The translations under genes and the position numbers were made by a program. A stretch of DNA of 64,000 nt from a candidate division WOR-3 bacterium. Lineage in GTDB: Bacteria > Hydrothermota > 32-111. How positions within the stretch are numbered: position 1 is the stretch's first letter; every line of letters starts with the position of its first letter. The notes beneath the pieces are model-generated. The model was not told the DNA's origin and made no database searches. It worked only from the letters and a program-made list of their open reading frames with translations. The stretch covers positions 1,120,001 through 1,184,000 of the forward strand of contig JBDRZU010000001.1 in the NCBI GenBank assembly GCA_039804105.1, written 5' to 3'. Below are positions 27,310-64,000 of the stretch, one piece after another.

Positions 27310-27999
27310 TTAATTTTTAAAACTCTGAGAATAGCCAAAACCAAACCAGGAAAAAACTCCAAAGTATTCAGGATAGTTTAAATATGCTTCACCAATGTAA
27401 ACTTTTTCTCTTTTTGATGTCAAAAATAAATCTATAAAAGGTATATCTATGAAGAGGTGTTTAAAAAAGGTGAATCTGAACTTACTTATCAAATCTATAC
27501 TTGCTCTTTTGTATCTTATATTATCATTGTTTTCAAGATTTTTGTAATACCAATCGTTGTAACCGATTCCAAAAGAATTTATAAAATTGATTTTCAAAAA
27601 TGAAAACTCTTTTTCAAAAGTGTAATGATCTATCAACAACCTTGAAACAAAAAGTGTGCCTATCAAAGAATCCCTGTCTCCTTCGATAAAGGGGATCGCA
27701 TTTGAATCCGCAAGATGTTTCTGACTAAGTTGAACATTTATCAAAATTGTTGATAATCCAAATTTTTCAGATAAAAACTGTTTATTAAATCTTGCTCCAG
27801 CAATAAGTGTATAGTTTGAAACTCCAAGATTTTTAAAATCGTTCTGCAAAAGTTCAGATAGTTCAAATCCGATATAAAAATTATTTATATAAGATGAAAA
27901 ACTTGATACCCACACGAACATTAAAAATATAAAAAAAAGTAACTTTATTACTTTCGGGGACGGTGCTTGACTTTTTGACTTTTTTTTCAACAATAGCAT
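27310..27999 (-). CDS. Hypothetical exported/outer-membrane protein; start uncertain
   Basis: Signal-like KLLFFIFLMFVWVSSFS, beta-strand pattern. The repeat at 27951-27987 reads through in frame as KSQAPSP. Confidence 0.55.
   Translation of the reverse strand: MLLLKKKSKSQAPSPKVIKLLFFIFLMFVWVSSFSSYINNFYIGFELSELLQNDFKNLGVSNYTLIAGARFNKQFLSEKFGLSTILINVQLSQKHLADSNAIPFIEGDRDSLIGTLFVSRLLIDHYTFEKEFSFLKINFINSFGIGYNDWYYKNLENNDNIRYKRASIDLISKFRFTFFKHLFIDIPFIDLFLTSKREKVYIGEAYLNYPEYFGVFSWFGFGYSQSFKN
27951..27987 (+). repeat. Copy 1 of the dispersed GGGGACGGTGCTTGACTTTTTGAC repeat
   Basis: 27951-27979 is identical to 63539-63567 (29 nt); 36/37 over the extended match. Confidence 0.9.
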
Positions 28000-28009
28000 A
28001 AAAAAATTA

Positions 28010-28082
28010 TGGAGGTAGTCGGATTCGAACCGACGACCCCATGCTTGCAAAGCATGTGCTCTCCCAACTGAGCTATACCCCC
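28010..28082 (-). tRNA. tRNA-Ala(TGC), CCA not encoded
   Basis: GGGGGTATAGCTCAGTTGGGAGAGCACATGCTTTGCAAGCATGGGGTCGTCGGTTCGAATCCGACTACCTCCA; G3:U70 pair. Confidence 0.96.
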
Positions 28083-52144: not shown

Positions 52145-52846
52145 TTGGATACAAAAGCGCTTTTTAAACTTTCTTATGGAGTTTACCTTGTGTGTTCTTC
52201 TGATGGGGAAAAAGTTAATGGTCAAATTGCAAACACAATTTTTCAGATAACTTCAGAACCGATAACAGTTGCTGTGAGTATAAACAAAAATAACTATACA
52301 CATCAAATAATTGAAAAAGGAAAAAATTTTTCTGTATCAATACTTTCAGAACAAACACCTTTACAGTTTATCGGAAATTTTGGTTTTAAAACAGGAAGAG
52401 AGATAAATAAATTTGAAAATATAAAATATGAAACTGGAACAACAGGAGCACCAATAGTTAAAGATTTTTCAGTTGCGATACTTGAATTTAAGGTTGTTAA
52501 CAAATTTGATGTGAACACACATACACTTTTTATCGGTGAACTCGTTGATGCCTATATCATCGATAATAACCAGCAACCAATGACTTACGCTTTTTACCAT
52601 GAAGTTAAAAAAGGTAAAACCCAGAAGAATGCCCCTACTTATATTGAAGAGAAAAAGGAAAATCCTGAAAAAAAGGAGGAGAAGATGCAAAAGTATAAAT
52701 GTGAGGTTTGTGGTTATGTATATGATCCTGCTGCTGGTGATCCTGACAACGGAATAAAACCCGGTACACCTTTTGAACAACTTCCTGATGACTGGGTGTG
52801 TCCTGTTTGTGGTGCTTCAAAATCAGAGTTTATAAAGGAGAGTTGA
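52145..52846 (+). CDS. hrb: High-molecular-weight rubredoxin (flavin reductase + rubredoxin)
   Basis: LSYGVY, QITSEP, THTLFIG, PMTY.FYH.VKKG...KNAPTY; C-terminal [12 protein letters not shown]...WVCPVCG. Confidence 0.88.
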
Positions 52847-54009
52847 TGAAAAGTTTTAGGATTGATGAGAACATTTTTTGGGTTGGTGGAATAGATTGGT
52901 CTTTAAGAGATTTTCATGGGTATACAACAGAAAGAGGTTCAACTTATAACTCTTATCTGATCATAGATGATAAAATCACACTCATTGATACTGTAAAACA
53001 TTATCTTTTTGATGAGTTTTTATCAAGGATAAAAAATGTTATAGATCCATCAAAAATCGATTACATAATTATAAACCATGTTGAGATGGACCATTCTGGG
53101 TGTTTACCAAAAATTTTACAGTATGCGAAAAATGCTCAGATAATAACAAATCCACAGGGAGAGAAAGGATTAAAATTACATTATGGAAAAGATCTAAATG
53201 TTAAAATAGTAAAAACTGGTGACAAACTAAATATTGGTAAAGAAAATCTTGTTTTCGTTCAAACACCGATGGTTCATTGGCCTGACAATATGGTAACATA
53301 CCTTGAAAACAAAAAGATTCTCTTTTCAAACGATGCTTTTGGTCAACATTATGCTTCATTTTTTAGATTCGATTATGAAAATCCACTCGATGAGATATTG
53401 TATCAAGCAAAAAAATATTATGCTAATATAGTTTTACCATATTCACAACAGGTTCAAACAGCGTTAAATCAATTGAAAGATCTTGAAATAAAAATTATTG
53501 CTCCAAGTCATGGAATCATCTGGAAAGAAAACATATCAAACATTTTGAAAGAGTATCAGACATGGTCAACAAATCCTTTGAAAAAAAAGGTTGTTCTTGT
53601 TTATGATACGATGTGGGGTTCAACTGAAACAATGGCTAAAAAATATTATGAGTTCTTTGAAAATGAGGGTTTTGAGGCCTTACTTCTTTCATTAAAAACA
53701 AACCATATATCCGATATAATGACAGAGGTTCTCGATTCATCGATAATAGGAATTGGAACACCGACTCTAAACAGACAACCATTACCTTCAATTGCAGGAT
53801 TTTTGACATACCTTCTTGGACTCAGTCCGAAAAATAAAAAATTCTTTGTTTTCGGTTCTTACGGCTGGGGTGGTGAAGGCACAAAGATAATAAAAGAGTA
53901 TCTTGAAAAATTTTCGCATCAGGTCGTTTTAGAAGAAAAAATCCAATATATCCCAGACCAGGAAAAAATTGAAAATTTAAAAAACAATATAAAAAGGAGT
54001 ATAGTATGA
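52846..54009 (+). CDS. fprA: Flavodiiron protein (FprA, A-type flavoprotein)
   Basis: GSTYNSY, NHVEMDHSG, PMVHWPD, SNDAFGQH, APSHG, YDTMWGST, FGSYGW.G. Confidence 0.95.
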   Translation: MKSFRIDENIFWVGGIDWSLRDFHGYTTERGSTYNSYLIIDDKITLIDTVKHYLFDEFLSRIKNVIDPSKIDYIIINHVEMDHSGCLPKILQYAKNAQIITNPQGEKGLKLHYGKDLNVKIVKTGDKLNIGKENLVFVQTPMVHWPDNMVTYLENKKILFSNDAFGQHYASFFRFDYENPLDEILYQAKKYYANIVLPYSQQVQTALNQLKDLEIKIIAPSHGIIWKENISNILKEYQTWSTNPLKKKVVLVYDTMWGSTETMAKKYYEFFENEGFEALLLSLKTNHISDIMTEVLDSSIIGIGTPTLNRQPLPSIAGFLTYLLGLSPKNKKFFVFGSYGWGGEGTKIIKEYLEKFSHQVVLEEKIQYIPDQEKIENLKNNIKRSIV

Positions 54010-54494
54010 TAAGTGAAAAAATGGTAAAAGAGATCAACGATCAGATTCAGAGAGAACTTTTCTCTGAATACCTTTACCTTCAGATGGCTGCATATTTTAA
54101 AGGGGAGAATCTTGATGGTTTTGCACATTGGATGGAAGTTCAGGCAAAAGAAGAGCATGGTCATGCGATGAAGTTTTTCAACCATCTATACGAAAGAAAC
54201 GCAAAAGTTATCCTTCAACCAATTCAGCAACCAAAAAACGATTTCAAATCTCCACTCGATGTTTTCAAATATGGTTACGAACATGAATTAACAGTTACAA
54301 AAAATATACATAACCTGATGGAACTTGCAAAGAAAGAGAACGATTACGCTTCTGAATCGTTTTTAAAATGGTATGTTGATGAACAGGTAGAAGAAGAGGA
54401 TTCGTTTTTAAAGATAGTAACAATTCTTGAAAAGATAAAGGATTCAGCAAATGCACTTTACATGCTTGATCATGAACTTGGAAAAAGAGAATAA
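54006..54494 (+). CDS. ftnA: Non-heme ferritin
   Basis: NDQI.REL.S.YLY, QA.EE..HAMK, HE..VT..I, FL.W.V.EQVEEE. Confidence 0.93.
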   Translation: MISEKMVKEINDQIQRELFSEYLYLQMAAYFKGENLDGFAHWMEVQAKEEHGHAMKFFNHLYERNAKVILQPIQQPKNDFKSPLDVFKYGYEHELTVTKNIHNLMELAKKENDYASESFLKWYVDEQVEEEDSFLKIVTILEKIKDSANALYMLDHELGKRE

Positions 54495-54509
54495 AATAGG
54501 GGGTTTATT

Positions 54510-54896
54510 ATGAAAACACAACTCAGAGAACTTTACAGATGTGATGTGTGCGGTAATGTTGTTGAAATTGTCAATACAGGTATGGTAATGCTTGTGTGTT
54601 GCAACAAACCGATGACAAAACTTGAACCAAAAAAAGAGGATACTGGTGTTGAGAAACATCTCCCAGTTATTGAAGATCTTGGAGGAAAAATAAAAGTTAA
54701 AGTTGGTTCAGTTGAACATCCGATGGAAGAGAAACATTATATTGTCTTTGTTGAAGTTTTAACTGACAAAAAAGTTTTAAGACATGAGTTCAAACCAGGT
54801 GAAAAACCAGAAGCAATTTTTGATGTTTCATTATCAGAGGTAAAACATGTTAGAGAGTTCTGTAATATACATATGCTCTGGGCAAAGGAGGTATAA
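54510..54896 (+). CDS. dfx: Desulfoferrodoxin (2Fe superoxide reductase)
   Basis: YRCDVCGN...CC, EKHLP, HPMEEKHYI, CNIH.LW. Confidence 0.93.
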   Translation: MKTQLRELYRCDVCGNVVEIVNTGMVMLVCCNKPMTKLEPKKEDTGVEKHLPVIEDLGGKIKVKVGSVEHPMEEKHYIVFVEVLTDKKVLRHEFKPGEKPEAIFDVSLSEVKHVREFCNIHMLWAKEV

Positions 54897-54898
54897 GT

Positions 54899-55441
54899 AT
54901 GACAAAAAAGAGTTTAAAAGGAACAAAAACTGAAAAAAACCTGTGGGAAGCATTTGCTGGTGAATCAATGGCAAGAAACAAATACACATACTTTGCATCT
55001 GTTGCAAAAAAAGAGGGATATGAACAGATAGCAGCGATATTTCAAGAAACAGCAGATAATGAAAAAGAACATGCAAAACTCCATTTTAAAGCACTTTCAG
55101 GTATAGGAAATACAATAGAAAACCTAAAAGCAGCAGCAGAAGGTGAAAATTATGAGACAACAACAATGTATCCTGAAATGGCAAAAATCGCAAGAGAAGA
55201 GGGATTTGACGAGATAGCAGATATGTTTGAAAAGATTGGTTCAGTAGAAAAAGATCATGAAAAAAGATATAGAAAACTCCTTGAAAATATTGAAAAACAG
55301 GTTGTGTTCAAAAGAGCAAAAAAGGTCTACTGGAAATGCAGAAACTGTGGACATATCCACGAAGCATCAGAAGCACCTGATATCTGCCCCGTCTGCAAAC
55401 ATCCAAAAGCATATTTCGAACTTTTTGTTGAGAATTATTAA
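54899..55441 (+). CDS. rbr: Rubrerythrin
   Basis: AFAGESMARNKY, E..HA, GE.YE...MY, E..H, WKCRNCG...CPVC.HP. Confidence 0.95.
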   Translation: MTKKSLKGTKTEKNLWEAFAGESMARNKYTYFASVAKKEGYEQIAAIFQETADNEKEHAKLHFKALSGIGNTIENLKAAAEGENYETTTMYPEMAKIAREEGFDEIADMFEKIGSVEKDHEKRYRKLLENIEKQVVFKRAKKVYWKCRNCGHIHEASEAPDICPVCKHPKAYFELFVENY

Positions 55442-55488
55442 AATTTATAAAATTACAAATTAAACTTAGTTTGATTTTCACATATTAC

Positions 55489-55514
55489 ACCCTGCCGTTA
55501 ACTGGCAGGGTTTT
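55489..55514 (+). terminator. Intrinsic terminator after rbr
   Basis: ACCCTGCC-GTTAACT-GGCAGGGT hairpin followed by TTT. Confidence 0.75.
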
Positions 55515-55526
55515 ATATATTTACGG

Positions 55527-55559
55527 AAAAAATGTCAAAAAGTCAAGCACCGTCCCCGA
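55527..55559 (-). repeat. Copy 2 of the repeat, left boundary of the R-M island
   Basis: AAAAAATGTCAAAAAGTCAAGCACCGTCCCCGA, the exact reverse complement of 63542-63574. Confidence 0.92.
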
Positions 55560-55565
55560 GTATTC

Positions 55566-58500
55566 TTATTTTCCATGTGTCAAATCTTCAGCAATTAGTT
55601 CTGCTTGTTTTAGTACCGTTTCTGTAGCTAACATTTGCATATCCGGCGGGTAACCATACTGACGCAATATTCGTTTAACAATGACCTTTAATTTTGCTTT
55701 TACACTTTCCTTTATTGTCCAATCAATCGATGCGTTTTCGCGTACTTTATTGTATAGAACTACAGCTAATTCTCTCAGTTTTTCTTTTCCCATTAACTCA
55801 CGGGCACTTTCATTGTTTGCAACTGCGGTATAAAAAGCATATTCATAATCGGAAAGCCCCAACTCTTCTGGTTCTTTATCCATTGCTTTAATTTCTTTGC
55901 TGAGTTTGATTAACTCCTCAATAACTTCTGCAGCTGTTAATATTTTGTTATGGTATTTTTTTATTGAACTTTCAAGCATCTCCATCAAGGTTTTTCCCTG
56001 TACAAGATTTTTCTTTAACCTTGCTTTTATTTCATCGCTAAGAAGTTTTTTTAGAACCTCCATTGCAAGGTTTTTGTGTTGCATGTTTTTAACTTCCAGA
56101 AGAAAATCTTCCGAAAGAATTGAAATCTCTGGCTTTTTAATGCCAGCTGCATCAAATACATCAATTACCTTATCCGTTACCAGAGATTTATCGATTACCT
56201 GTTTGATCGCAGTTTCGATTTCCTCATCGGTTTTGCCAGAGCCGGTCTTGTCGAATTTGGCAAGCCGTGCCTTAACCGCCTGAAAGAAGGCAATTTCATC
56301 TTTAACCGCCATAGCTTGCTCATGCGGAATGGCAATGGAGAATGCTTTTGACAGGGCTGTTACCTCGTCGATGTAACGTTTTTTACCATCTTCGAGCCCG
56401 AGAATATGTTCTTCGGCTTCAAGAATAATTGAGAGTTTCCTGCTTGTGTCTGCTTTAAAATACTCTTCATAAGCAAAACCGTGAAACATTTGTCTTACCA
56501 CTTCCAGTTTTTCTTGCATCAGCGCTACGGCTTGTTCCTGAGCCACAGCGGGATCTCCCTTGCCGCCAGAACTTGAGTAGAACGAAAGAGCTTTTTTAAG
56601 GTCCGCTGCAATACCCAAGTAATCGACAATTAGCCCACCGGTTTTATCTTTATACACCCGGTTGACTCGTGCGATAGCCTGCATGAGATTATGTCCCTGC
56701 ATAGGCTTGTCAATGTACATAGTATGCAGACAAGGAACATCAAATCCAGTAAGCCACATATCGCAAACAATGACCAATTTTAGTTCATCGTCAGGGTTTT
56801 TCATGCGGTCAGCAAGGATACGTCTCTCTTCTTTGGTGGTATGATGTTTGGCAATTTCAGGTCCATCGGATGAGGCCGAAGTCATCACTACCTTGATAAC
56901 GCCTTTTTTCAGATCGTTGCTATGCCACTTAGGACGTATTTTGATGATTTCATCGTAAAGGGCAGCAGCAATCCATCGTGACATTGTTACAATCATGCCT
57001 TTACCTTCAAAAACTTCTTGCCGCTGTTCAAAATGAGCTACAATATCCTGAGCCAGATGTTTTAATCGGTCGGCACTACCAACAAGTGCTTCGAGTTGTG
57101 TCCATTTGGCTTTTGCTTTTTGGGTTTCCGAAAGATCTTCCTGTTTTAATTCTTCATCGAGTTCTCTTACCAGTTTTTTCCCTTCTTCGCTTAAGCTGAT
57201 TTTTGCCAGACGGCTTTCGTAATAAATCCTCACTGTTGCACCATCTTCCACTGCCTGGGCAATATCGTAGATGTCTATGTAATTTCCGAAAACAGCCGGG
57301 GTATTTTTGTCATCTTTCTCAATTGGAGTCCCGGTAAAACCCAGATATGTAGCATTGGGTAGAGCATCGCGCATATATTTGGCAAAACCATAGACTGTTT
57401 TTTTGCCAACAACATTACCGTTTTCATCTTTTGCATCTACGATCTTTGCCTTGAATCCATATTGGGTACGGTGAGCCTCATCAGCGATAACCACAATATT
57501 TTTTCTTTCAGAAAGGGTTTCATAGACATTGCCCTCGTCGGGCATGAACTTATGTATAGTGGTAAAAACAATACCGCCAGAAGCTACTTTAAGCAACTCT
57601 TTAAGATGCTCGCGGCTTTCAGCTTGCACAGGTTCCTGTCGCAAAAGCTGGCGACATGCAGCAAAGGTATCGAAAAGCTGGTCGTCGAGGTCGTTTCGGT
57701 CGGTGATAACCACGATGGTGGGGTTGTCCATAACAAGCACAATCTTACCTGTAAAGAACACCATAGAGAGCGATTTGCCCGACCCTTGCGTATGCCATAC
57801 CACACCACCTTTTCGGTCGCCAATAGGTTGTGTAGCTGTTGCCGGTAAGCCATAACTCTCGGGCGATTCCATAACCATATTATCTCCGCCATGATTAGCT
57901 ACCAGAGATTTTCGGGGCAATGTGATTATAGAAGAGCTCGGGCGAATATACCCAGCCGCCCGTAGCGTTGATTCAACGGCACGATTCACCGCGTAGTACT
58001 GGTGATATGCTGCCATTTTCTTGACAGTTTCGTATGTAATCTGGCCGGTTTGTTTATCTTCTTTTTTCGATTTTTCGAATACGATGAAATGGCGTATCAT
58101 GTCAAGCAGCGTATATTTTTGAAGCATTCCTTTAATGAGCGTTTCGAGTTGGCATATAAGCGCTGATGCCTCAACCTTGCCATCAGCGGTTTTCCAGGCA
58201 GAAAAACGGCTGATATTTGCCGATATGGTACCGGCTTTTGCCTCAAGACCATCGGATATTACCACAAAACCATTGTAGGTGAACAGTCGTGGTATAGTTT
58301 CCTTGTAGGTCTGTATCTGCCTGAATGCTGAATGGATGGTGGCGTTTTCGTCAGCAGGATTTTTAAGCTCTAAGACAACCAGAGGAAGACCATTTACAAA
58401 TAAAACAAGGTCAGGACGTTTGTTTATATTGTTTTCAATAACGGTAAACTGATTTACTACCAGAAATTCGTTGTTCTCAATATTGTTGAAATCCACCAGC

Positions 58501-58841
58501 CATACCAGATCGCCACGGCTGTGGCCATTTTTTTTATAGTTTACCGTGATTCCTTCAGTAAGCATGCGATGGAAGTTTTCGTTGTTGACAATTAGCTCTG
58601 GAGAATTGAGGCGGAGAATCTGTTTGATGGCATCCTCGCGAGCATCGGCTGGTATACTGGGATTTATACGATCTACAGCCTGTTGCAAACGATCTATCAA
58701 AATCACATCTTCAAATGATTGGCGTTCTGGTTTAATGCCATCGGGGGCAATGTCAGGGCCATAGACATATTTGAAACCCTGTTTTTGCAGTAGTTCTATG
58801 GCTAATTTTTCGATATCCGATTCTGTAATGTTAATAGGCAT
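55566..58841 (-). CDS. hsdR: Type I restriction endonuclease subunit R
   Basis: RPDLVLFVNGLPL...ELK nuclease motif, WHTQGSGKS, DEAHRTQY, FTGTP, MWLTGFD, QAIARVNR, YGYPP. Confidence 0.96.
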   Translation of the reverse strand: MPINITESDIEKLAIELLQKQGFKYVYGPDIAPDGIKPERQSFEDVILIDRLQQAVDRINPSIPADAREDAIKQILRLNSPELIVNNENFHRMLTEGITVNYKKNGHSRGDLVWLVDFNNIENNEFLVVNQFTVIENNINKRPDLVLFVNGLPLVVLELKNPADENATIHSAFRQIQTYKETIPRLFTYNGFVVISDGLEAKAGTISANISRFSAWKTADGKVEASALICQLETLIKGMLQKYTLLDMIRHFIVFEKSKKEDKQTGQITYETVKKMAAYHQYYAVNRAVESTLRAAGYIRPSSSIITLPRKSLVANHGGDNMVMESPESYGLPATATQPIGDRKGGVVWHTQGSGKSLSMVFFTGKIVLVMDNPTIVVITDRNDLDDQLFDTFAACRQLLRQEPVQAESREHLKELLKVASGGIVFTTIHKFMPDEGNVYETLSERKNIVVIADEAHRTQYGFKAKIVDAKDENGNVVGKKTVYGFAKYMRDALPNATYLGFTGTPIEKDDKNTPAVFGNYIDIYDIAQAVEDGATVRIYYESRLAKISLSEEGKKLVRELDEELKQEDLSETQKAKAKWTQLEALVGSADRLKHLAQDIVAHFEQRQEVFEGKGMIVTMSRWIAAALYDEIIKIRPKWHSNDLKKGVIKVVMTSASSDGPEIAKHHTTKEERRILADRMKNPDDELKLVIVCDMWLTGFDVPCLHTMYIDKPMQGHNLMQAIARVNRVYKDKTGGLIVDYLGIAADLKKALSFYSSSGGKGDPAVAQEQAVALMQEKLEVVRQMFHGFAYEEYFKADTSRKLSIILEAEEHILGLEDGKKRYIDEVTALSKAFSIAIPHEQAMAVKDEIAFFQAVKARLAKFDKTGSGKTDEEIETAIKQVIDKSLVTDKVIDVFDAAGIKKPEISILSEDFLLEVKNMQHKNLAMEVLKKLLSDEIKARLKKNLVQGKTLMEMLESSIKKYHNKILTAAEVIEELIKLSKEIKAMDKEPEELGLSDYEYAFYTAVANNESARELMGKEKLRELAVVLYNKVRENASIDWTIKESVKAKLKVIVKRILRQYGYPPDMQMLATETVLKQAELIAEDLTHGK

Positions 58842-59403
58842 AATAATCGTCTTTTCTCCAGTTTTGGGGATTATTTTTTATGTATTCTGAAATTTGGATG
58901 TATGATTCATCATTACGGATGATGTGTTCATAATAATTGCGTTGCCATGCAAACGCAGGGTTTATGAAACGGGCACGTTTGGTAACGGCCGATTTAAAAC
59001 CACGAACAATGGATGCCAAATTTTTCGATTGCGGACCGAATTTGTTTTGATTTGTAGAGACGCAATGCATTGCGTCTCTACGATAACGGTCGTCATCACG
59101 GTTATCGATACGTTGCGTATTATATTGATTTTCGCCAATAATAATGGCGTGAAAATGATTGGGCATAATTACAAATTCGCCCATCGTTAAATTCATATCA
59201 CGACGCATTTCAAATGTTTTCAACCATTCCTGTCGGACAATTTCCCCAATTTCCGACAATACCATTTGTCCATCCAATATTTCGCCAAAAAAATTTTGCC
59301 GGTCGTGGGTACAAATGGTAACAAAATATGCCCCATTCCAGCCATAATCCCAATGTGGCAATCGCGTCGATGGTATGCGGTATGTATTTTTGTATTTATT
59401 CAT
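58831..59403 (-). CDS. REP-associated tyrosine transposase (RAYT; HUH/Y1 family)
   Basis: S.RL..WDY...GAYFVTICT.DR, VIMPNHFH (HUH), L.SIVRGFKS, WQRNYYEHIIR, YI.NNP; ATG at 59403 overlaps the hsdS stop. Confidence 0.9.
   Translation of the reverse strand: MNKYKNTYRIPSTRLPHWDYGWNGAYFVTICTHDRQNFFGEILDGQMVLSEIGEIVRQEWLKTFEMRRDMNLTMGEFVIMPNHFHAIIIGENQYNTQRIDNRDDDRYRRDAMHCVSTNQNKFGPQSKNLASIVRGFKSAVTKRARFINPAFAWQRNYYEHIIRNDESYIQISEYIKNNPQNWRKDDYYAY
59054..59081. repeat. Perfect 28-bp GTAG-type REP-like palindrome inside the RAYT gene
   Basis: GTAGAGACGCAATG|CATTGCGTCTCTAC. Confidence 0.88.
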
Positions 59404-60535
59404 ATTGTATCCGTATTTCACCTGAAATCAATTTTGGCAACAAAAGATCGCGGAGTTTTTCCAGCGTGTGGATTTGATATCTATTTAATTCAATTTTTGA
59501 AAATAGTGATTCTGCTATTTGTTCAAACTTATTCAATAAATCCAAGGGTGGTACAAGAATTTTATAATCATAAAAAACTCCTTTTTGGAAAAATTCTCTA
59601 GCGCTTCCAGATGCACTATGTAATAATTCACTAATTATTTGACGCAATGCATAATTCAAATAATGTTGAGAAAAATCTTCTTTTGCTCGAAACCGCCACA
59701 TATTTTGATTTTGTAATGCAGGTAAAATATCTTGAGTGACAATCGCAAAATTCCCTAAGCTTGCCCCTACCATTACTAATAGGAAGTCATTACGTTTTAA
59801 ATAAAATTGACTATATTCAGTTGCTAATTCTTCGGAGATATACACTAAATCATTTAATTCAATCCAATGATTTGAAAAGTTTAAGGTTCTGATAATTTTT
59901 TGTCCATATTCTTTATAACTAGAACTTTGAAAAGCATATCCATTAAAAATTACACAAATATCCTTTAGTGGTTTTTCCTCCCACCCCTTTGGCAAACCGT
60001 TTTTGCAGGGTTCGATGAACCATTGGCGGAAGAGAGTTTCTGCCATGGCTTCGAGGGTTTTGTTTTGGCGGTGGAGCAGGTCTATTTTATCGTCAAGGCT
60101 GGAGAGAACCGAGGCTATGGCTCGCTGCTCAGGGAGAGGGGGGAGGAGGAGGTCTTGATTATATGCAGCGTTACGATTTAATCCAGGTACAGCACTATCA
60201 CTATTTAAATCCTCAAGACCTAATGTTTGCAAACAATAATATAAATAATCAAAGTCGTATTCTTCATCATTTGGAAGAATATAATATGCTGTATCAATAC
60301 AAAAAAAAGGTTTTTCACTTTTATAGATTTTTCCTATCGTACCTTTTCTACCCACAATAATACCTTTAGAATTTACTAAAGGTTCGTTATGCCATCCGCT
60401 CAAGCCTGATGAACTGTAAACAGGAACATCACCATTAACGCGAACTTCTTCTTTAAGTCCTTTACCATAGTTTAGTACAACAACATCCCCCAGTTTACAT
60501 TCCCTCCACCCCTTCGAATTATTACCTTCATTCAT
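59396..60535 (-). CDS. hsdS: Type I R-M specificity subunit S
   Basis: W....LGD; GRKGT; central LPPLPEQRAIASVLSSLDDKI...N.TLE...LF..WF; LPKGW; LRDLLLPKL.SGEI. Confidence 0.95.
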   Translation of the reverse strand: MNEGNNSKGWRECKLGDVVVLNYGKGLKEEVRVNGDVPVYSSSGLSGWHNEPLVNSKGIIVGRKGTIGKIYKSEKPFFCIDTAYYILPNDEEYDFDYLYYCLQTLGLEDLNSDSAVPGLNRNAAYNQDLLLPPLPEQRAIASVLSSLDDKIDLLHRQNKTLEAMAETLFRQWFIEPCKNGLPKGWEEKPLKDICVIFNGYAFQSSSYKEYGQKIIRTLNFSNHWIELNDLVYISEELATEYSQFYLKRNDFLLVMVGASLGNFAIVTQDILPALQNQNMWRFRAKEDFSQHYLNYALRQIISELLHSASGSAREFFQKGVFYDYKILVPPLDLLNKFEQIAESLFSKIELNRYQIHTLEKLRDLLLPKLISGEIRIQYE

Positions 60536-60545
60536 AATAAATTCC

Positions 60546-61694
60546 TTAATCATTAAACAATTTCATATATTCATGAAAAACAAAAACTCTATTGCGTTTG
60601 TAACCTGTAATTTCGTGCAATATGTTTTGTTTAGTAAAAATTCGAATCAATTCGTTGGCTGCTTTAGGCGAAAGGCCTGTTACGGATTGGGTTTCGGCTA
60701 CCGTGATGACCGGTTTCCTGAACAGTTGATGAAAAAGATCGAGTGCCTGTTTTGATCGCCTGCCCATTGGCAGGATATGTTCTTTTTCAATTCGGGATTT
60801 AAGTTTTATAATATTTTGCAATGTATTGACCGAATTTTCTGCAGTGTTTGCAATTCCCACAAGAAAATACTTAATCCATTGTAGTAAATCGTTTTTAGTC
60901 CTCACAAAAGTCAGGTTATCATAGTAAAGCGATTTGTTTTTTTCGAAATATTCCGAAAGGTATAACAAAGGTTTGTCCAGAACTCCGTTGGCTACAAGAT
61001 ACAGGGTAATCAAGAGCCGTCCTATCCTTCCATTACCATCCAAAAAAGGGTGAATGGTTTCAAATTGATAATGGGCAATGGCTATTTTTATCAGGTGTGG
61101 AATCTTAATATCAGAATTATTCAGAAAAAATTCAAAGTCTGAAAGCAACTCAGGAAGCTCCGTATGAGCCGGAGGAATAAAAACGGCATCGGCAAGGGTA
61201 GCTCCGCCAATCCAGTTTTGCGTTGTGCGAAATTCACCGGGATTTTTGTGTTCACCTCGCACACTAGAAAGTAAAATACGATGGGTGTTTTTAATAAGCC
61301 TATTCGATAAAGGAAGCTTTTTCAGCTCTTCGATAGCATAATTGAGGGCTTTAACATAGTTGTTAACCTCTTGCCAGTCATCTCGCTTTTCCGGATCAAT
61401 ATCTCTTTCATCAATAAGTGCTTCCTCAATATTTGTTCGTGTTCCCTCTATTCGGCTTGATACGACGGCTTCTTTAAGTACATGCATAATAATGAACATG
61501 TCAACGTCGGGTATCAATCTGGAAAAGGAGTTTAATTCTCCCAGACGCAAACTGGCACGTTCCAAGAGTTCATTGATAGATGAATCGGTCCAATAGAACG
61601 GATGATTTATCTTTTCGGGTAAAAAATACTCGTACTGCAGCCCCTTTTTATAGCTTCCTGATATAAAATTTTTTATGTCCATATATCGTTCCAA
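60546..61694 (-). CDS. Fic family protein (class II type, N-terminal inhibitory motif, C-terminal HTH)
   Basis: HPFLDGNGRIGR catalytic motif, SSRIEG inhibitory motif, PGEFR..QNWIGG. Confidence 0.93.
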   Translation of the reverse strand: MERYMDIKNFISGSYKKGLQYEYFLPEKINHPFYWTDSSINELLERASLRLGELNSFSRLIPDVDMFIIMHVLKEAVVSSRIEGTRTNIEEALIDERDIDPEKRDDWQEVNNYVKALNYAIEELKKLPLSNRLIKNTHRILLSSVRGEHKNPGEFRTTQNWIGGATLADAVFIPPAHTELPELLSDFEFFLNNSDIKIPHLIKIAIAHYQFETIHPFLDGNGRIGRLLITLYLVANGVLDKPLLYLSEYFEKNKSLYYDNLTFVRTKNDLLQWIKYFLVGIANTAENSVNTLQNIIKLKSRIEKEHILPMGRRSKQALDLFHQLFRKPVITVAETQSVTGLSPKAANELIRIFTKQNILHEITGYKRNRVFVFHEYMKLFND

Positions 61695-61763
61695 AGTAAA
61701 TTATAAAAATACATATTTTACTTTATTGTATGAAAGTAAAATATAGAAATTTTAATTTTAGTT

Positions 61764-63308
61764 TCATATTAATTTCACCTTTTTTAAATTCTCCAGTATC
61801 GCCTTATTCAGTCGCTCTTCTTCTTTTAACTGTTCTTCAAACTCTTTTTTAAGTTGTGTAAATCGCTCATTAAAATCGAAGTCGTCTTCTTCGTCGGGAA
61901 GACCTACGTATCGCCCGGGAGTAAGCACATAGTCGAGTTCCCGCACACGTTCAATGTTTGCCGAACAGCAAAAACCTTTGATGTCCTCGTATTTTCTGTT
62001 GGGATTTCGCCATTCGTGGTAGGTACGGGCTATTTTCTGAATATCCTCGGTGGTGAGTACACGGTTTCGCCGATTGATTAGTTGTCCCATATTGCGGGCA
62101 TCGATAAAAAGAATTTCATCAATGCGGTTGCGGTATTTTCCGTTTGCCTTGTTTCTGCTCAGAAACCACAGGCAAGCCGGGATCTGAGTATTCAAAAAGA
62201 GCTTAGCTGGTAGGTTTACAATACAATCCACAAGCCGTGCCTCGATAATTTCTTTTCGTATTTCACCTTCGCCGCCAGTTTTTGATGTAAGAGAACCCTT
62301 AGCCAGCACAAAACCAGCCATTCCGCCGGGGCTTAAATGGTATAAGAAGTGTTGTATCCAAGCGTAGTTGGCATTACTTGCCGGTGGAACACCATATTTC
62401 CAGCGGGCATCGTTGCGTAAAAGTTCGCCTCCCCAGTCGCTGTCGTTGAACGGCGGATTGGCTATCACAAAATCAGCTTTGAGGTCCTTGTGGGCATCGT
62501 TAAGAAACGAGCCTTCACTGTTCCACTTTACCTGCGAGCTGTCGATACCACGGATGGCAAGGTTCATTTTGCACAGTCGCCAGGTGGTTTGGTTGCTTTC
62601 CTGTCCGTAAATGGATATGTCGTTGATTTTTCCCTGATGGCTCTCTACAAACTTTTCGGATTGCACGAACATACCGCCAGAGCCGCAGCAGGGGTCGAAC
62701 ACCCGTCCTTTATATGGCTCAAGCATTTCAACCAGCAGTTCTACCACACATCTTGGGGTATAGAATTGTCCACCTTTTTTACCTTCTGCCAATGCAAACT
62801 CGCCCAGAAAATACTCGAACACATGACCTAAAATGTCGGCACTACGTGCTTTTGCCTCACCAAGCGCGATATTGGAAATAAGGTCAATGAGGCCTCCTAA
62901 ACTCGTTGGGTCAATGTTACCACGGGCATATACTTTTGGAAGCACATCTTTGAGCGATGGATTTTCCTTCTCGATGGCATCCATCGCTTCGTCAATCTCT
63001 TTACCAATGGTAGGCAGCTTTGCCCTCGATTGCAAGTACGACCAGCGGGCTTTTTCGGGTACATAGAACACATTTTCTGCCTTGTATTCATCTTTATCTT
63101 CAGGATCTGCTCCGGCATATTCGCCTTTGCCGCTCTTTAGTTTTGCGTGAAGTTCTTCAAATGCATCGGAGATGTATTTCAGGAAAATTAATCCCAGAAC
63201 AACATGCTTGTATTCCGCTGCGTCAATGTTTTTGCGAAGCTTATCTGCAGCTTTCCAGAGTTGTTTTTCTAATGGTTCGTTGGTGTTATTCTTTTTTTTC
63301 TTTACCAT
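61764..63308 (-). CDS. hsdM: Type I R-M N6-adenine methyltransferase subunit M
   Basis: [44 protein letters not shown]. Confidence 0.96.
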
Positions 63309-63538
63309 ACTTTCTCCTTTTTAACTATTCATTTCTTTCATACCGCACGAAAAGACACTCTTGGAGCAAAAAATATTTTTCGCAAAATTTTCTTTTCACA
63401 ATACATTGACGCTCTGCATTTCGCACAATTTTCAATATCTGTAATTTCCTATAATTAACCTATTTTAATTATATAAATAACAAAAAAATTTTAAACAAAA
63501 AACTCATTATCTATCACTATTTTCAATGTTTTTCAACT

Positions 63539-63575
63539 CTTTCGGGGACGGTGCTTGACTTTTTGACATTTTTTT
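63539..63575 (+). repeat. Copy 3 of the repeat, right boundary of the R-M island
   Basis: CTTTCGGGGACGGTGCTTGACTTTTTGACATTTTTTT. Confidence 0.92.
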
Positions 63576-63706
63576 GTAAACCTTTATTCTTATTATAGTT
63601 ACATTATCTTCAAAAATCTTTTTTCTAATAGATTTTTTATTTGCCATACAATTATAAAATTTAAGATTTAAAATCATAGTTTAACATATAAAACAATCTA
63701 AAATTT

Positions 63707-64000
63707 TTACTCCATCAACAATGTATCTTCCAGAAAGTTTGTACTTTTTATTGTATATTTGCCTCTTTTTAGATTCAAAAAATTCACCGTTCCCGTTTCA
63801 TCAGAAATGTTTTCTCTCACAATATTTCCATCAACATCAAGCAGTAAAAATTTTTCGTTTTTTATTTCAGTATTCAATTTTAAAGAAAACTTTTCTTGCA
63901 ATGTTTCAGTAAAAAAATAATTCTCCCATCTTTTTCTGTTGATATTACCTGAAAAATCAACAACACTATCAACAATAACTTGAACTAAAAATTTTTCATT
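63707..64000 (-). CDS. 3' part of a secreted protein with Ig-like/prealbumin-like domains (partial)
   Basis: Frame is open from the window edge: ..VVDFSGN..., SDETGTVNFLNLKRGKYTI. Confidence 0.55.
   Translation of the reverse strand, partial: NEKFLVQVIVDSVVDFSGNINRKRWENYFFTETLQEKFSLKLNTEIKNEKFLLLDVDGNIVRENISDETGTVNFLNLKRGKYTIKSTNFLEDTLLME

Follow-up and report, generated by a model that had tools for sequence, protein, structure and literature searches.

What brought a Type I restriction-modification (R-M) island to lie between two perfect inverted repeats, and did these repeats have any part in it? The question is raised by a locus near the end of the window analysed here, a 64,000-nt stretch of DNA from a candidate division WOR-3 bacterium (C1:1120001-1184000 of the assembly under study, G000, which comprises two contigs and 1.81 Mb with 30% GC). 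The island is bounded by 33-nt inverted arms at positions 55527-55559 and 63542-63574 of the window. An earlier note on this DNA had read the arms as the halves of a hairpin split by the capture of defence cargo, the process being driven by the tyrosine transposase-like protein (RAYT) encoded within the island or by another one elsewhere in the genome. As judged from their sequence, the arms are instead solo terminal inverted repeats (TIRs) of a TIRtron, the transposase of which is encoded by a single-copy gene (TIRYT) located outside the window. Copies of this repeat recurrently bound exchangeable defence cargo, and they may serve as anchors of its turnover.

The arms as terminal repeats of a TIRtron

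A repeat search recovered the two arms as 100% complementary over 33 nt, with 7982 nt between them, and as the sole perfect long inverted repeat in the region 54000-64000, the runners-up being 70-89% complementary. The similarity that had been seen to extend from the exact reverse complements to TTTAC/GTAAA is also present, as an imperfect extension shifted by 2 and 1 bases. On the minus strand, the left arm reads from GGGG to a T-run, and its GGGG terminus (the 55559 end) points toward the cargo; the right arm, on the plus strand, is a solo copy of the same repeat and likewise presents its GGGG terminus to the cargo. The left arm ends six bases from the end of the hsdR open reading frame (ORF; 55566) and follows a terminator-like hairpin (55489-55511) situated between rbr and the arm, as previously described. 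The 16-mer core of the arms, allowing up to 3 mismatches, is found three times in the window against 0.05 expected per window by shuffling. The third copy, an exact one, is a solo at 27955-27984 on the plus strand; it adjoins a tRNA-Ala gene (28010-28082, minus strand) and is colinear in G001, the closest congener, with about 89% identity.

When the search was extended to the whole genome with a 23-mer of the motif and up to 3 mismatches, the arms turned out to be two of 40 dispersed copies, 36 of which are intergenic according to crude ORF calls. The copies have in common a stretch of about 30 nt, GGGGACGGTGCTTGACTTTTTGACATTTTT, made up of a conserved 15-nt head, GGGGACGGTGC, followed by two 8-bp subrepeats of the form TTGACnnn, the whole being directional and non-palindromic. 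On the GGGG side, the sequences flanking the copies are unrelated, on the T-rich side they are only loosely alike for about 35 nt, and no repeat of the size of an insertion sequence (IS) was found around them in a self-BLAST of G000. More than half of them (23 of 40) fall within C1:1018472-1291000, which represents 15% of the genome. This plastic zone of about 270 kb also carries the island, three CRISPR-like arrays, several R-M systems, Kiwa and surface-protein genes. Neighbouring copies no more than 15 kb apart form 14 direct, 5 diverging and 4 converging pairs; solos dominate, with one close converging doublet among the 40 copies. For 27 of 40 copies, the gene lying behind the GGGG end has a divergent orientation, and a co-oriented downstream gene is present in 18 of 38.

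The proposal that the arms are hairpins or half-hairpins found no support in folding. Six single-stranded DNA (ssDNA) stretches of 66-76 nt, covering both arms on each strand and both TIRtron ends, folded no better than their shuffles, with five z-scores between +0.92 and +1.47 and one of -0.16 (83 to 192 of 200 shuffles folded at least equally well). Moreover, no head-to-head junction, with CCCC abutting GGGG, occurs in G000 or G001.

The gene cognate to the repeat is located about 105 kb upstream of the island (C1:1070308-1071225) and codes for P0002, a 305-aa protein matching Pfam Y1_Tnp above the cut-off (E 3.5e-12). It is the only Pfam-level Y1 gene in G000 and is present in a single copy. 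An inverted pair of the motif flanks it: one copy lies 52 bp upstream of the ATG and is followed by a ribosome-binding site (RBS), while the other extends into the gene at its 3' end, so that the last residues of the protein, ...KNVKKSSTVPE, are encoded by the motif in reverse complement. The first ~31 nt of both arms equal, base for base, the two repeats flanking this gene, and the right arm shares about 35 more bases on its T-rich side (to about 63610) with the gene-start end of the TIRYT unit. The CCCC/GGGG ends, rightly noted to face the cargo, correspond to the true outer termini of the repeat-bearing element. Compared with the published TIR head GGGGWSAS, the head found here, GGGGACGG, fits at seven of eight positions, position 7 being G and not A. 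Membership of the IS200/IS605 family is not indicated, given the 305-aa length of the protein, its score against NCBIfam transpos_IS200 (E 6e-5, 23 bits versus a cut-off of 55) and the presence of terminal inverted repeats; that family is marked by a TnpA of ~130-150 aa and by subterminal hairpins, and has no such repeats. A match of the arms to the ends of a known DDE-type IS or of a miniature inverted-repeat transposable element (MITE) had been named as evidence against the split hairpin; the arms do belong to a known kind of element, which is a Y1 TIRtron and not a DDE IS.

Of 30 related genomes, 21 have homologs of P0002. Of the 11 loci retrieved (L028-L038), five have the gene surrounded by the inverted motif pair (in G000, G002, G003, G019 and, with a variant motif, G007), and a further unit of this type is found at G022:C6 (L252). 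As for the remaining ones, G022:C75 has just two copies, both upstream, in G012 and G008 a single variant copy accompanies the 3' end, and the motif is absent at three distant paralogs. Many homologs lie on contigs of 960-1100 bp, which is the repeat-to-repeat length of the unit. The databases name members of the family 'transposase', 'RayT' or 'DnaA domain protein' (the latter for a 65%-identical homolog) and place it in candidate division WOR-3. P0002 matches NCBIfam REP_Tyr_transpos with an E value of 2.9e-16, under the 80-bit cut-off. Its translation carries the motifs HFH and Y-x-WSS, and H59, Y135, W137 and S139 are invariant or nearly so in 36 homologs. An AlphaFold (AF2) model built from these homologs has a mean predicted local distance difference test (pLDDT) score of 87 and shows a confident helical domain at residues 224-296. 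The best PDB fold match of the N-terminal domain is the E. coli RAYT-REP complex 4er8 (E 7e-7), followed by the IS608 and ISDra2 TnpA proteins; a PDB search by sequence gave no match. A DnaA_C-like C-terminal domain is weakly supported, Pfam PF08299 being matched in the C-terminal part of one of the 36 family members (E 2e-9) and an hhalign comparison of the family with the DnaA of G000 itself being negative.

Empty and differently filled sites

Orthologous sites were sought with a 20-kb query around the island. In three further congeners (G002, G003 and G004), the two flanks of the island are adjacent, with 73-82% identity and gaps of 16, 58 and 219 bp, and none of these sites contains a copy of the motif. 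The sites of G002 and G004, when read, contain only, between rbr and the convergent SpaA-like gene, a single bidirectional terminator hairpin, with no palindrome, at odds with the single long hairpin that the split-hairpin proposal had foreseen for an empty site. The DNA that is extra in G000 extends over about 55442-63706. It thus includes, in addition to arms and cargo, a left outer segment (55442-55526) and an AT-rich right outer segment (63575-63706), both present in G000 and G001 and missing at the empty sites of G002-G004. The left one harbours the hairpin at 55489-55511, which could serve both rbr and hsdR. The breakpoints relative to these three congeners consequently lie about 85 and 130 bp outside the arms, a situation that the earlier note itself had considered incompatible with its model. 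The bases directly flanking the arms on the outside contain no direct repeat, hence no target-site duplication is seen. A 31-bp direct repeat with 71% identity (55443-55473 and 63650-63680), situated just within the borders of the insertion, might have been a long target duplication that has decayed; being AT-rich and having a third copy within the island, it was taken as chance.

A different picture emerges from G001. Its contig C13 matches G000 from rbr through the left arm, and C8 from the SpaA-like gene through the right arm (86-88% identity), and on both sides the homology ends within 2-4 bases after CCCCGA. The inner ORF by the right arm encodes the N-terminus of a Type III restriction enzyme (res; NF012027, E 6.5e-16), 45% identical to the other Type III Res of G001, and the inner pieces have no second occurrence in the G000 or G001 assembly. 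The expectation that relatives would hold other cargo between the same arms thus holds true for G001, which has kept the outer flanks as well. The site is a strain-variable hotspot of defence genes: three congeners lack any cargo there, and G001 carries a Type III system within the arms that it shares with G000.

With regard to the cargo of G000, its GC content is 0.40, compared with 0.304 for the genome and 0.30-0.31 in the 8 kb on each side, in agreement with the earlier observation that the interval is GC-richer, and its DNA has no match in the four congeners, the best one (71%) being in another genus. By this composition and the lack of matches in congeners, the operon of Type I R-M, SoFic and Y1 genes is horizontally acquired, foreign cargo. 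Logan contigs (word shares of at most 0.35) were also inspected over 54900-64000 for signs of inversion, excision or other cargo. Those identical to the left flank break off within the arm, at 55556, a break that a 33-bp repeat should produce at k=31, and the joints to other cargo that they suggested were discarded, as they derive from R-M genes of other organisms. Nothing was drawn from the depths in run X3 (13.5 for the exact flank contig, 2.4-5 for exact island pieces), since contig depths are not comparable in this way.

Repeat copies and variable DNA across the genome

TIR copies recurrently bound exchangeable defence cargo. This conclusion rests on the Type III swap in G001 and on diverging pairs around two further sets of defence genes. 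One of them, in G001 (C1:43774-50273, L061:2782-9265), bounds 6.5 kb with REase_III, DarT, DarG and MTase_III (Mod) genes, and the G000 counterpart of this segment consists of type IX secretion system (T9SS) surface-protein genes. Within this Type III operon, DarT-DarG sits between res and mod, and msrAB and a carbamoyltransferase gene are its neighbours. The other, at 1272179 (minus) and 1281710 (plus), is the second multi-gene diverging pair of G000 and encloses HKD-Snf2, Type IIG and KwaA/KwaB (Kiwa) genes. The segment between its copies (C1:1272246-1281595, L002:8246-17595) includes an HKD/PLD-Snf2 helicase of the DrmD/BrxH-like type and a 299-aa ORF without family. The idea of REP-like half-sites around defence cargo is therefore sustained to the extent that other diverging arm pairs also enclose defence systems.

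Exchange at the repeats is not limited to R-M genes. A 2.5-kb cassette coding for an LVIVD protein is enclosed by two repeats in G000 where G001 has a single repeat, the breakpoints lying 0 and 34 bp from the copies. The repeat array on the TauE side contains different, partly shuffled cassettes in the two genomes, with one PDC-S01 ATPase cassette shared at 90.6% identity; the flanks of such arrays carry TauE, a peptidase and CRISPR. At a different repeat site, G001 has a homolog of the G000 cassette C1:1267592-1271980. Among the 36 copies of G001, besides those colinear with G000, nine retain the T-side flank only and none the GGGG-side flank only, five have both flanks beside different G000 copies, and five have neither.

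Several observations concern the same variable regions. Large LVIVD-repeat proteins (C1:261268-263436, 493879-496095, 1268096-1271872 and 1286637-1289066) are bounded by copies and differ between G000 and G001. Three of the four end in a T9SS C-terminal sorting domain, and the repeat-bounded layout is common to variable surface proteins and defence genes. The 263-kb zone C1:1018472-1281709, which covers the window from 1 to 64000, is missing from the three large contigs of G001; the zone is represented in G001 by 13 contigs of 540-1010 bp, of which 12 are centred on a repeat copy and 8 are colinear across it. CRISPR-like arrays were located in G000 at C1:1018155-1021006, 1038312-1038843, 1091684-1093525 and C2:419769-421981, and in G001 at C3:279150-282000. 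Repeat copies lie about 15-45 bp from the array end on G000 C2 and G001 C3, and a CARF/Csm6-like gene (C1:1016921-1018090) sits between a repeat copy and an array. A reading of the copies as CRISPR leaders was set aside, the G001 C3 copy being presumably at the trailer end according to repeat orientation. Finally, a 304-bp converging repeat doublet that is single in G001 flanks 2.3 kb in G000 (with 419-aa and 247-aa ORFs without family) and breaks the assembly. The end of C1 repeats C1:1386945-1387065 exactly, and that of C2 is the reverse complement of C1:1387124-1387248 (C1:1386945-1389684; C2:421992-422116), so that C1 and C2 probably join at the doublet, which seems to be duplicated, by a CRISPR array with Cas1/Cas2. 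An IS21-like reading of the 419-aa and 247-aa pair was abandoned, as neither has a Pfam or PADLOC match.

Gene content of the island and its own Y1 gene

All genes between the arms are on the minus strand, and the Pfam matches in this interval are confined to HsdR, a weak Y1_Tnp protein, HsdS, Fic and HsdM. The restriction subunit gene hsdR (55566-58841, 1091 aa) carries HSDR_N, SWI2_SNF2 and T1RH-like_C domains and is recognised by PADLOC as REase_I (E reported as 0). It is preceded in the direction of transcription by the Y1/HUH gene for P0001 (58831-59421, 196 aa), which overlaps the hsdR start and the hsdS end, by the specificity subunit gene hsdS (59396-60553, 385 aa), by a gene for a Fic protein of the SoFic model (60546-61694, 382 aa; Pfam Fic_N and Fic, PADLOC SoFic E 3e-120), and by the methyltransferase gene hsdM (61764-63308, 514 aa), hsdS and hsdM being recognised by both Pfam and PADLOC. 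With HsdR, HsdM and HsdS together (Pfam; PADLOC REase_I, MTase_I and Specificity_I), the system is assigned to Type I R-M. Neither an integrase nor a DDE transposase is encoded between the arms according to Pfam, and the earlier statement that these and a target-site duplication are missing stands after the Pfam search and the reading of the flanks.

The island's own Y1 protein had been named as a candidate for moving it. P0001 shows HFH and YYEH motifs in its translation, but its matches remain below the cut-offs (Pfam Y1_Tnp, E 3.8e-4; NCBIfam REP_Tyr_transpos, E 8e-17 and 61.5 bits versus 80). It was not found with P0002 as a query, and its gene has no repeat of its own around it. Homologs are present in 23 of 150 genomes of the phylum. 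Of 11 such loci annotated, eight correspond to housekeeping contexts and three to R-M contexts (L236, L240 and L246), namely one hsdR-Y1-hsdS arrangement as here, one Type ISP and one Type IIG system. As it belongs to another family, lacks a flanking repeat and has homologs mostly in housekeeping contexts, P0001 is classified as a member of a ~200-aa Y1 family distinct from TIRYT, and as an operon passenger rather than the mobiliser of the arms. Thus, of the two candidates that had been put forward as mobiliser, the island RAYT falls away as non-cognate, whereas a cognate HUH/Y1 gene with an inverted motif pair does exist elsewhere in the genome, in the form of the P0002 gene.

Upstream of the island, positions 52798-55441 of the window hold an oxidative-stress cluster of an anaerobe, entirely on the plus strand and kept in the congeners. 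Its genes code for a flavodiiron-type protein (ODP/metallo-beta-lactamase and flavodoxin domains), a ferritin-like protein, desulfoferrodoxin and rubrerythrin.

The repeat in other genomes

A scan for the motif across other genomes, with one genome per species, matched at least 84 stretches. Among the matches listed, the sources are metagenome-assembled genomes (MAGs) labelled WOR-3/Stahlbacteria, Aminicenantes, TA06, Cloacimonadota, Bipolaricaulota, Elusimicrobia, Wallbacteria, a Thermoplasmatota archaeon and others, phylum labels and binning being possibly wrong. MAGs carrying the labels of many different phyla share one and the same 15-nt head, with a separate TTGACnnn variant in each genome (G000, G002, G003, G011, G012, G022, G028, loci L151-L230). 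The variable bases of the two subrepeats shift together from genome to genome (TTTT, ATTT, TCTG, AGTG, TTCT), a paired change that fits co-evolution with a tandem-binding protein, or recent spread.

Multi-copy loci in these genomes are, again among the matches listed, converging in 15 of 18 cases and direct in 3 of 18, with no head-to-head arrangement; in converging copies, the T-rich ends are opposed across 15-130 bp. Such doublets fold into perfect 29-31-bp stems (-30 to -49 kcal/mol) and are MITE- or REPIN-like. At L185, L183, L175 and L213, the flanks lengthen the palindrome by 4-8 bases, and the element may prefer hairpin-like (terminator) targets for insertion. The empty site of the island in G002 and G004 is likewise a GGGG...CCCC terminator hairpin.

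How the cargo may be exchanged

Participation of the repeat copies in cargo turnover, as anchors of recombination, is in our view the best explanation, with a probability of roughly 0.55. In this scenario, the TIRYT would seed repeat copies through intergenic DNA, perhaps nicking at the GGGG terminus, and the identical copies would constitute portable recombination anchors, at which recombination would resolve so that cargo is swapped, inserted or deleted. The likeliest agent would be host homologous recombination between copies, or with incoming DNA bearing a copy, and we give it preference over catalysis by the TIRYT; the island's own Y1 gene would have no part in the turnover. A number of results weigh against such a role. 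The evidence at the G001 locus comes down to two contigs (699 and 750 bp) with 231 and 311 bp of other cargo, which are not linkable. The closest relatives of the R-M operon, in G006, G008, G009, G013 and G019, have no repeat within about 1.5 kb at up to 4 mismatches. Seventeen of the 36 G001 copies are plainly colinear with G000. In two other families (G022, G028), the genes within repeat clusters are small accessory ones and ones of toxin-antitoxin type, with no R-M. The supposed genome-wide tie between repeat positions and accessory DNA was not significant when the three large G001 contigs were aligned to G000: for this one genome pair, and excluding the 263 kb that these contigs lack, a G000 copy was found at a breakpoint in 3 of 20 structural events within 50 bp and in 4 of 20 within 150 bp (binomial p 0.27 for 50 bp and 0.38 for 150 bp, the intergenic null expectation for each event being 9% and 16%, respectively), and at least 12 indels involve no repeat at all. 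The 9:0 asymmetry between the flanks of G001 copies shows that the repeat unit ends sharply at its GGGG terminus and runs on at the T side, and gives no pointer to the acting enzyme. To our knowledge, no activity of any TIRYT has been shown so far.

In an alternative reading, the copies would be selfish or neutral MITE-like debris, gathering where insertions are tolerated, such as at the edges of accessory DNA and between convergent genes, and turnover would proceed by ordinary allelic homologous recombination in the long conserved flanks (rbr and the SpaA-like gene), the repeats marking the hotspot without a share in the process. Such passive co-occurrence, which we regard as possible but rather unlikely, agrees with the non-significant breakpoint test, the colinear copies, the indels (at least 12 of 20) and the related R-M operons devoid of repeats, and both Type III to Type I allelic substitution and repeat-flanked R-M systems have been documented without a dedicated enzyme (PMC2853133). 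It accounts poorly for the position of both cargo boundaries within 2-4 bases of the repeat termini between G000 and G001, and for the fact that all four R-M-type cargoes examined at repeat pairs lie between diverging pairs; the alternation of repeat-cassette-repeat with a single repeat, and the same type of cassette at different sites (L022/L024), need recombination at the repeat. At the other extreme, the TIRYT and its ~40 solos could form a trans-acting, integron-like cassette system, nicking at the GGGG of any copy and joining resident or incoming DNA. The solos would then dock defence cassettes (Type I, IIG and III R-M, Kiwa, DarTG, PDC-S01) and surface-protein genes, and the shared head could be a landing pad across distant lineages. 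We hold this to be doubtful.

The remaining explanations fare less well than recombination anchoring. The split-hairpin model supposes a prior palindrome, CCCC abutting GGGG, as the docking site, the centre of which is cut by an HUH/Y1 enzyme in ssDNA hairpin form before cargo is inserted and half-sites are left behind. A cognate Y1/HUH enzyme does exist, the GGGG termini point toward the cargo at the island and at three other diverging pairs, different cargo lies between the same arms in G001, and, by analogy with IS200/IS605 biology, an excised circle of the element would bear the abutted sequence. The model is nevertheless largely refuted, since the three empty sites lack the repeat and those of G002 and G004 any palindrome, the arms do not fold beyond shuffles and no head-to-head pair occurs in G000, G001 or the 18 multi-copy loci elsewhere (among the matches listed); in addition, the insert reaches 85 and 130 bp past the arms and the island Y1 gene is non-cognate, leaving any version of it very improbable. 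Movement of arms and cargo as one composite or non-autonomous transposon, with the TIRYT acting in trans as in the units of Furuta et al., would explain why the arms arrived together with the cargo region relative to G002-G004, and the MITE-like doublets with 29-31-bp stems in other phyla and the many homologs on ~1-kb contigs are what multi-copy elements would give. Yet the GGGG outer termini of the arms are directed inward, the reverse of what is seen in the TIRtron and in all 15 doublets (among the matches listed), no target-site duplication is present, the inserted segment exceeds the arm-to-arm length, G001 retains the arms and not the cargo, and the unit was not found elsewhere, which makes this scenario hardly credible. 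Equally remote is a regulatory element, in which the two TTGAC boxes would act as promoter, operator or insulator at operon borders and be kept by regulator-binding selection. The motif contains TTGACA, one copy precedes the TIRYT start by 52 bp with an RBS after it, and the gene behind the GGGG end is often divergent (27/40). However, a consensus promoter scan gave no site at the left arm and four at the right arm (2.9 +/- 1.8 expected), each arm points into the 3' end of a convergent gene, and only 18 of 38 copies have a co-oriented downstream gene; the perfect 30-nt identity of the 40 copies, their unrelated flanks, the doublets and the cognate transposase suit a mobile repeat better. Sigma-54 and sigma-70 promoter readings were rejected, the spacing, by eye, being unfit and scans no better than those of shuffles.

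Significance and comparison with known systems

The host role of 'domesticated' RAYT and TIRYT tyrosine transposases and of their dispersed repeats is a long-standing open question, for which G000 and G001 offer a compact testable case, with a cognate gene and repeat, a sharp GGGG end, and loci that differ in defence cargo at this terminus. If the link between repeats and cargo is causal, it would represent a new route of defence-island assembly and exchange in uncultivated phyla, and, should the integron-like system be real, 'domesticated' RAYT-like transposases would gain a function. If the link is not causal, the locus calls for caution: the perfect inverted repeat that encloses an R-M island may consist of no more than two stray copies of a high-copy element, and the presence of a transposase-like gene within an island does not necessarily make that gene its mobiliser. 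In the literature searched, the term TIRYT occurs in only two papers, and no work tying RAYT, REPIN or TIRYT repeats to defence-island borders was found in the portions of text that the search returned.

TIRtrons have been described as Y1 genes (TIRYTs) flanked by terminal inverted repeats headed GGGGWSAS, some of which overlap the 3' end of the gene, and their TIRs can also occur as dispersed families, with copies that are single, paired as dimers or grouped (Di Nocera et al. 2013, PMC3733652). Most TIRYTs fall in subclass 2.1 of TnpA-Y1, with a Bac_DnaA_C/HTH-like C-terminus (Quentin et al. 2018, PMC6006769). As far as their cited sections go, both papers propose assays only. The element found here resembles the TIRtrons so described in its ~300-aa Y1/HUH protein, longer than RAYTs, in its long inverted repeats in place of REP hairpins, in the GGGG start, in the repeat over the gene 3' end and in the moderately abundant dispersed TIR family. 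It differs from the published members in belonging to candidate division WOR-3, with the same TIR in MAGs labelled as many other phyla, in the near-exclusive occurrence of solos in this genus (1 close doublet among 40 copies), and in the repeated bounding of defence and surface-protein cassettes, which the cited sections of PMC3733652 and PMC6006769 do not report. The feature is thus a TIRtron repeat family of a known, barely studied kind, whose tie to defence-cassette exchange is suggestive, not statistically secured.

The likeness to REPIN-RAYT systems, as outlined by Bertels and Rainey (2011), lies in a single-copy Y1 gene with its own inverted repeat, in tens of intergenic copies, and in doublets that fold into long hairpins, here in other genomes. 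Unlike in that outline, the unit is non-palindromic, solos dominate G000 and inverted doublets are not the main form; the unit hairpin with a GTAG or CGTC head, which defines REPs and REPINs, is absent, and the TIRYT has an extra ~160-aa C-terminal part compared with RAYT. Mobile R-M systems, as presented by Furuta, Abe and Kobayashi (2010, PMC2853133), share with the island the inverted-repeat flanks, the empty site in relatives, the substitution of Type III by Type I and the extra operon genes. Their transposon-like units, according to the same part of that work, have unit-specific repeats and an 8-bp target duplication, whereas here a 40-copy repeat, arranged inside-out with its termini inward, shows no duplication, persists when the cargo changes and lies 85 and 130 bp inside the empty-site breakpoints.

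Exchangeable cassettes delimited by short repeats or conserved flanks, with no cassette-encoded recombinase, are also known from the minimal mobile elements and dRS3/NIME arrays of Neisseria, and from the pdif modules of Acinetobacter plasmids, where R-M or resistance genes are exchanged by natural transformation and homologous recombination, or by the host XerCD at palindromic dif-like sites. The repeat studied here differs from these in being the non-palindromic end of a Y1 transposon. Integron-like traits are present in the direct-repeat arrays, which separate cassettes of one gene each (0.2-2.7 kb), with different contents in close relatives. No integron integrase is found by these arrays, the only two Phage_integrase genes of G000 (C1:656101 and 1328558) being both distant, and the repeats, in contrast to the structure-conserved attC sites, are identical in sequence and of mixed orientation (14/5/4 pairs).

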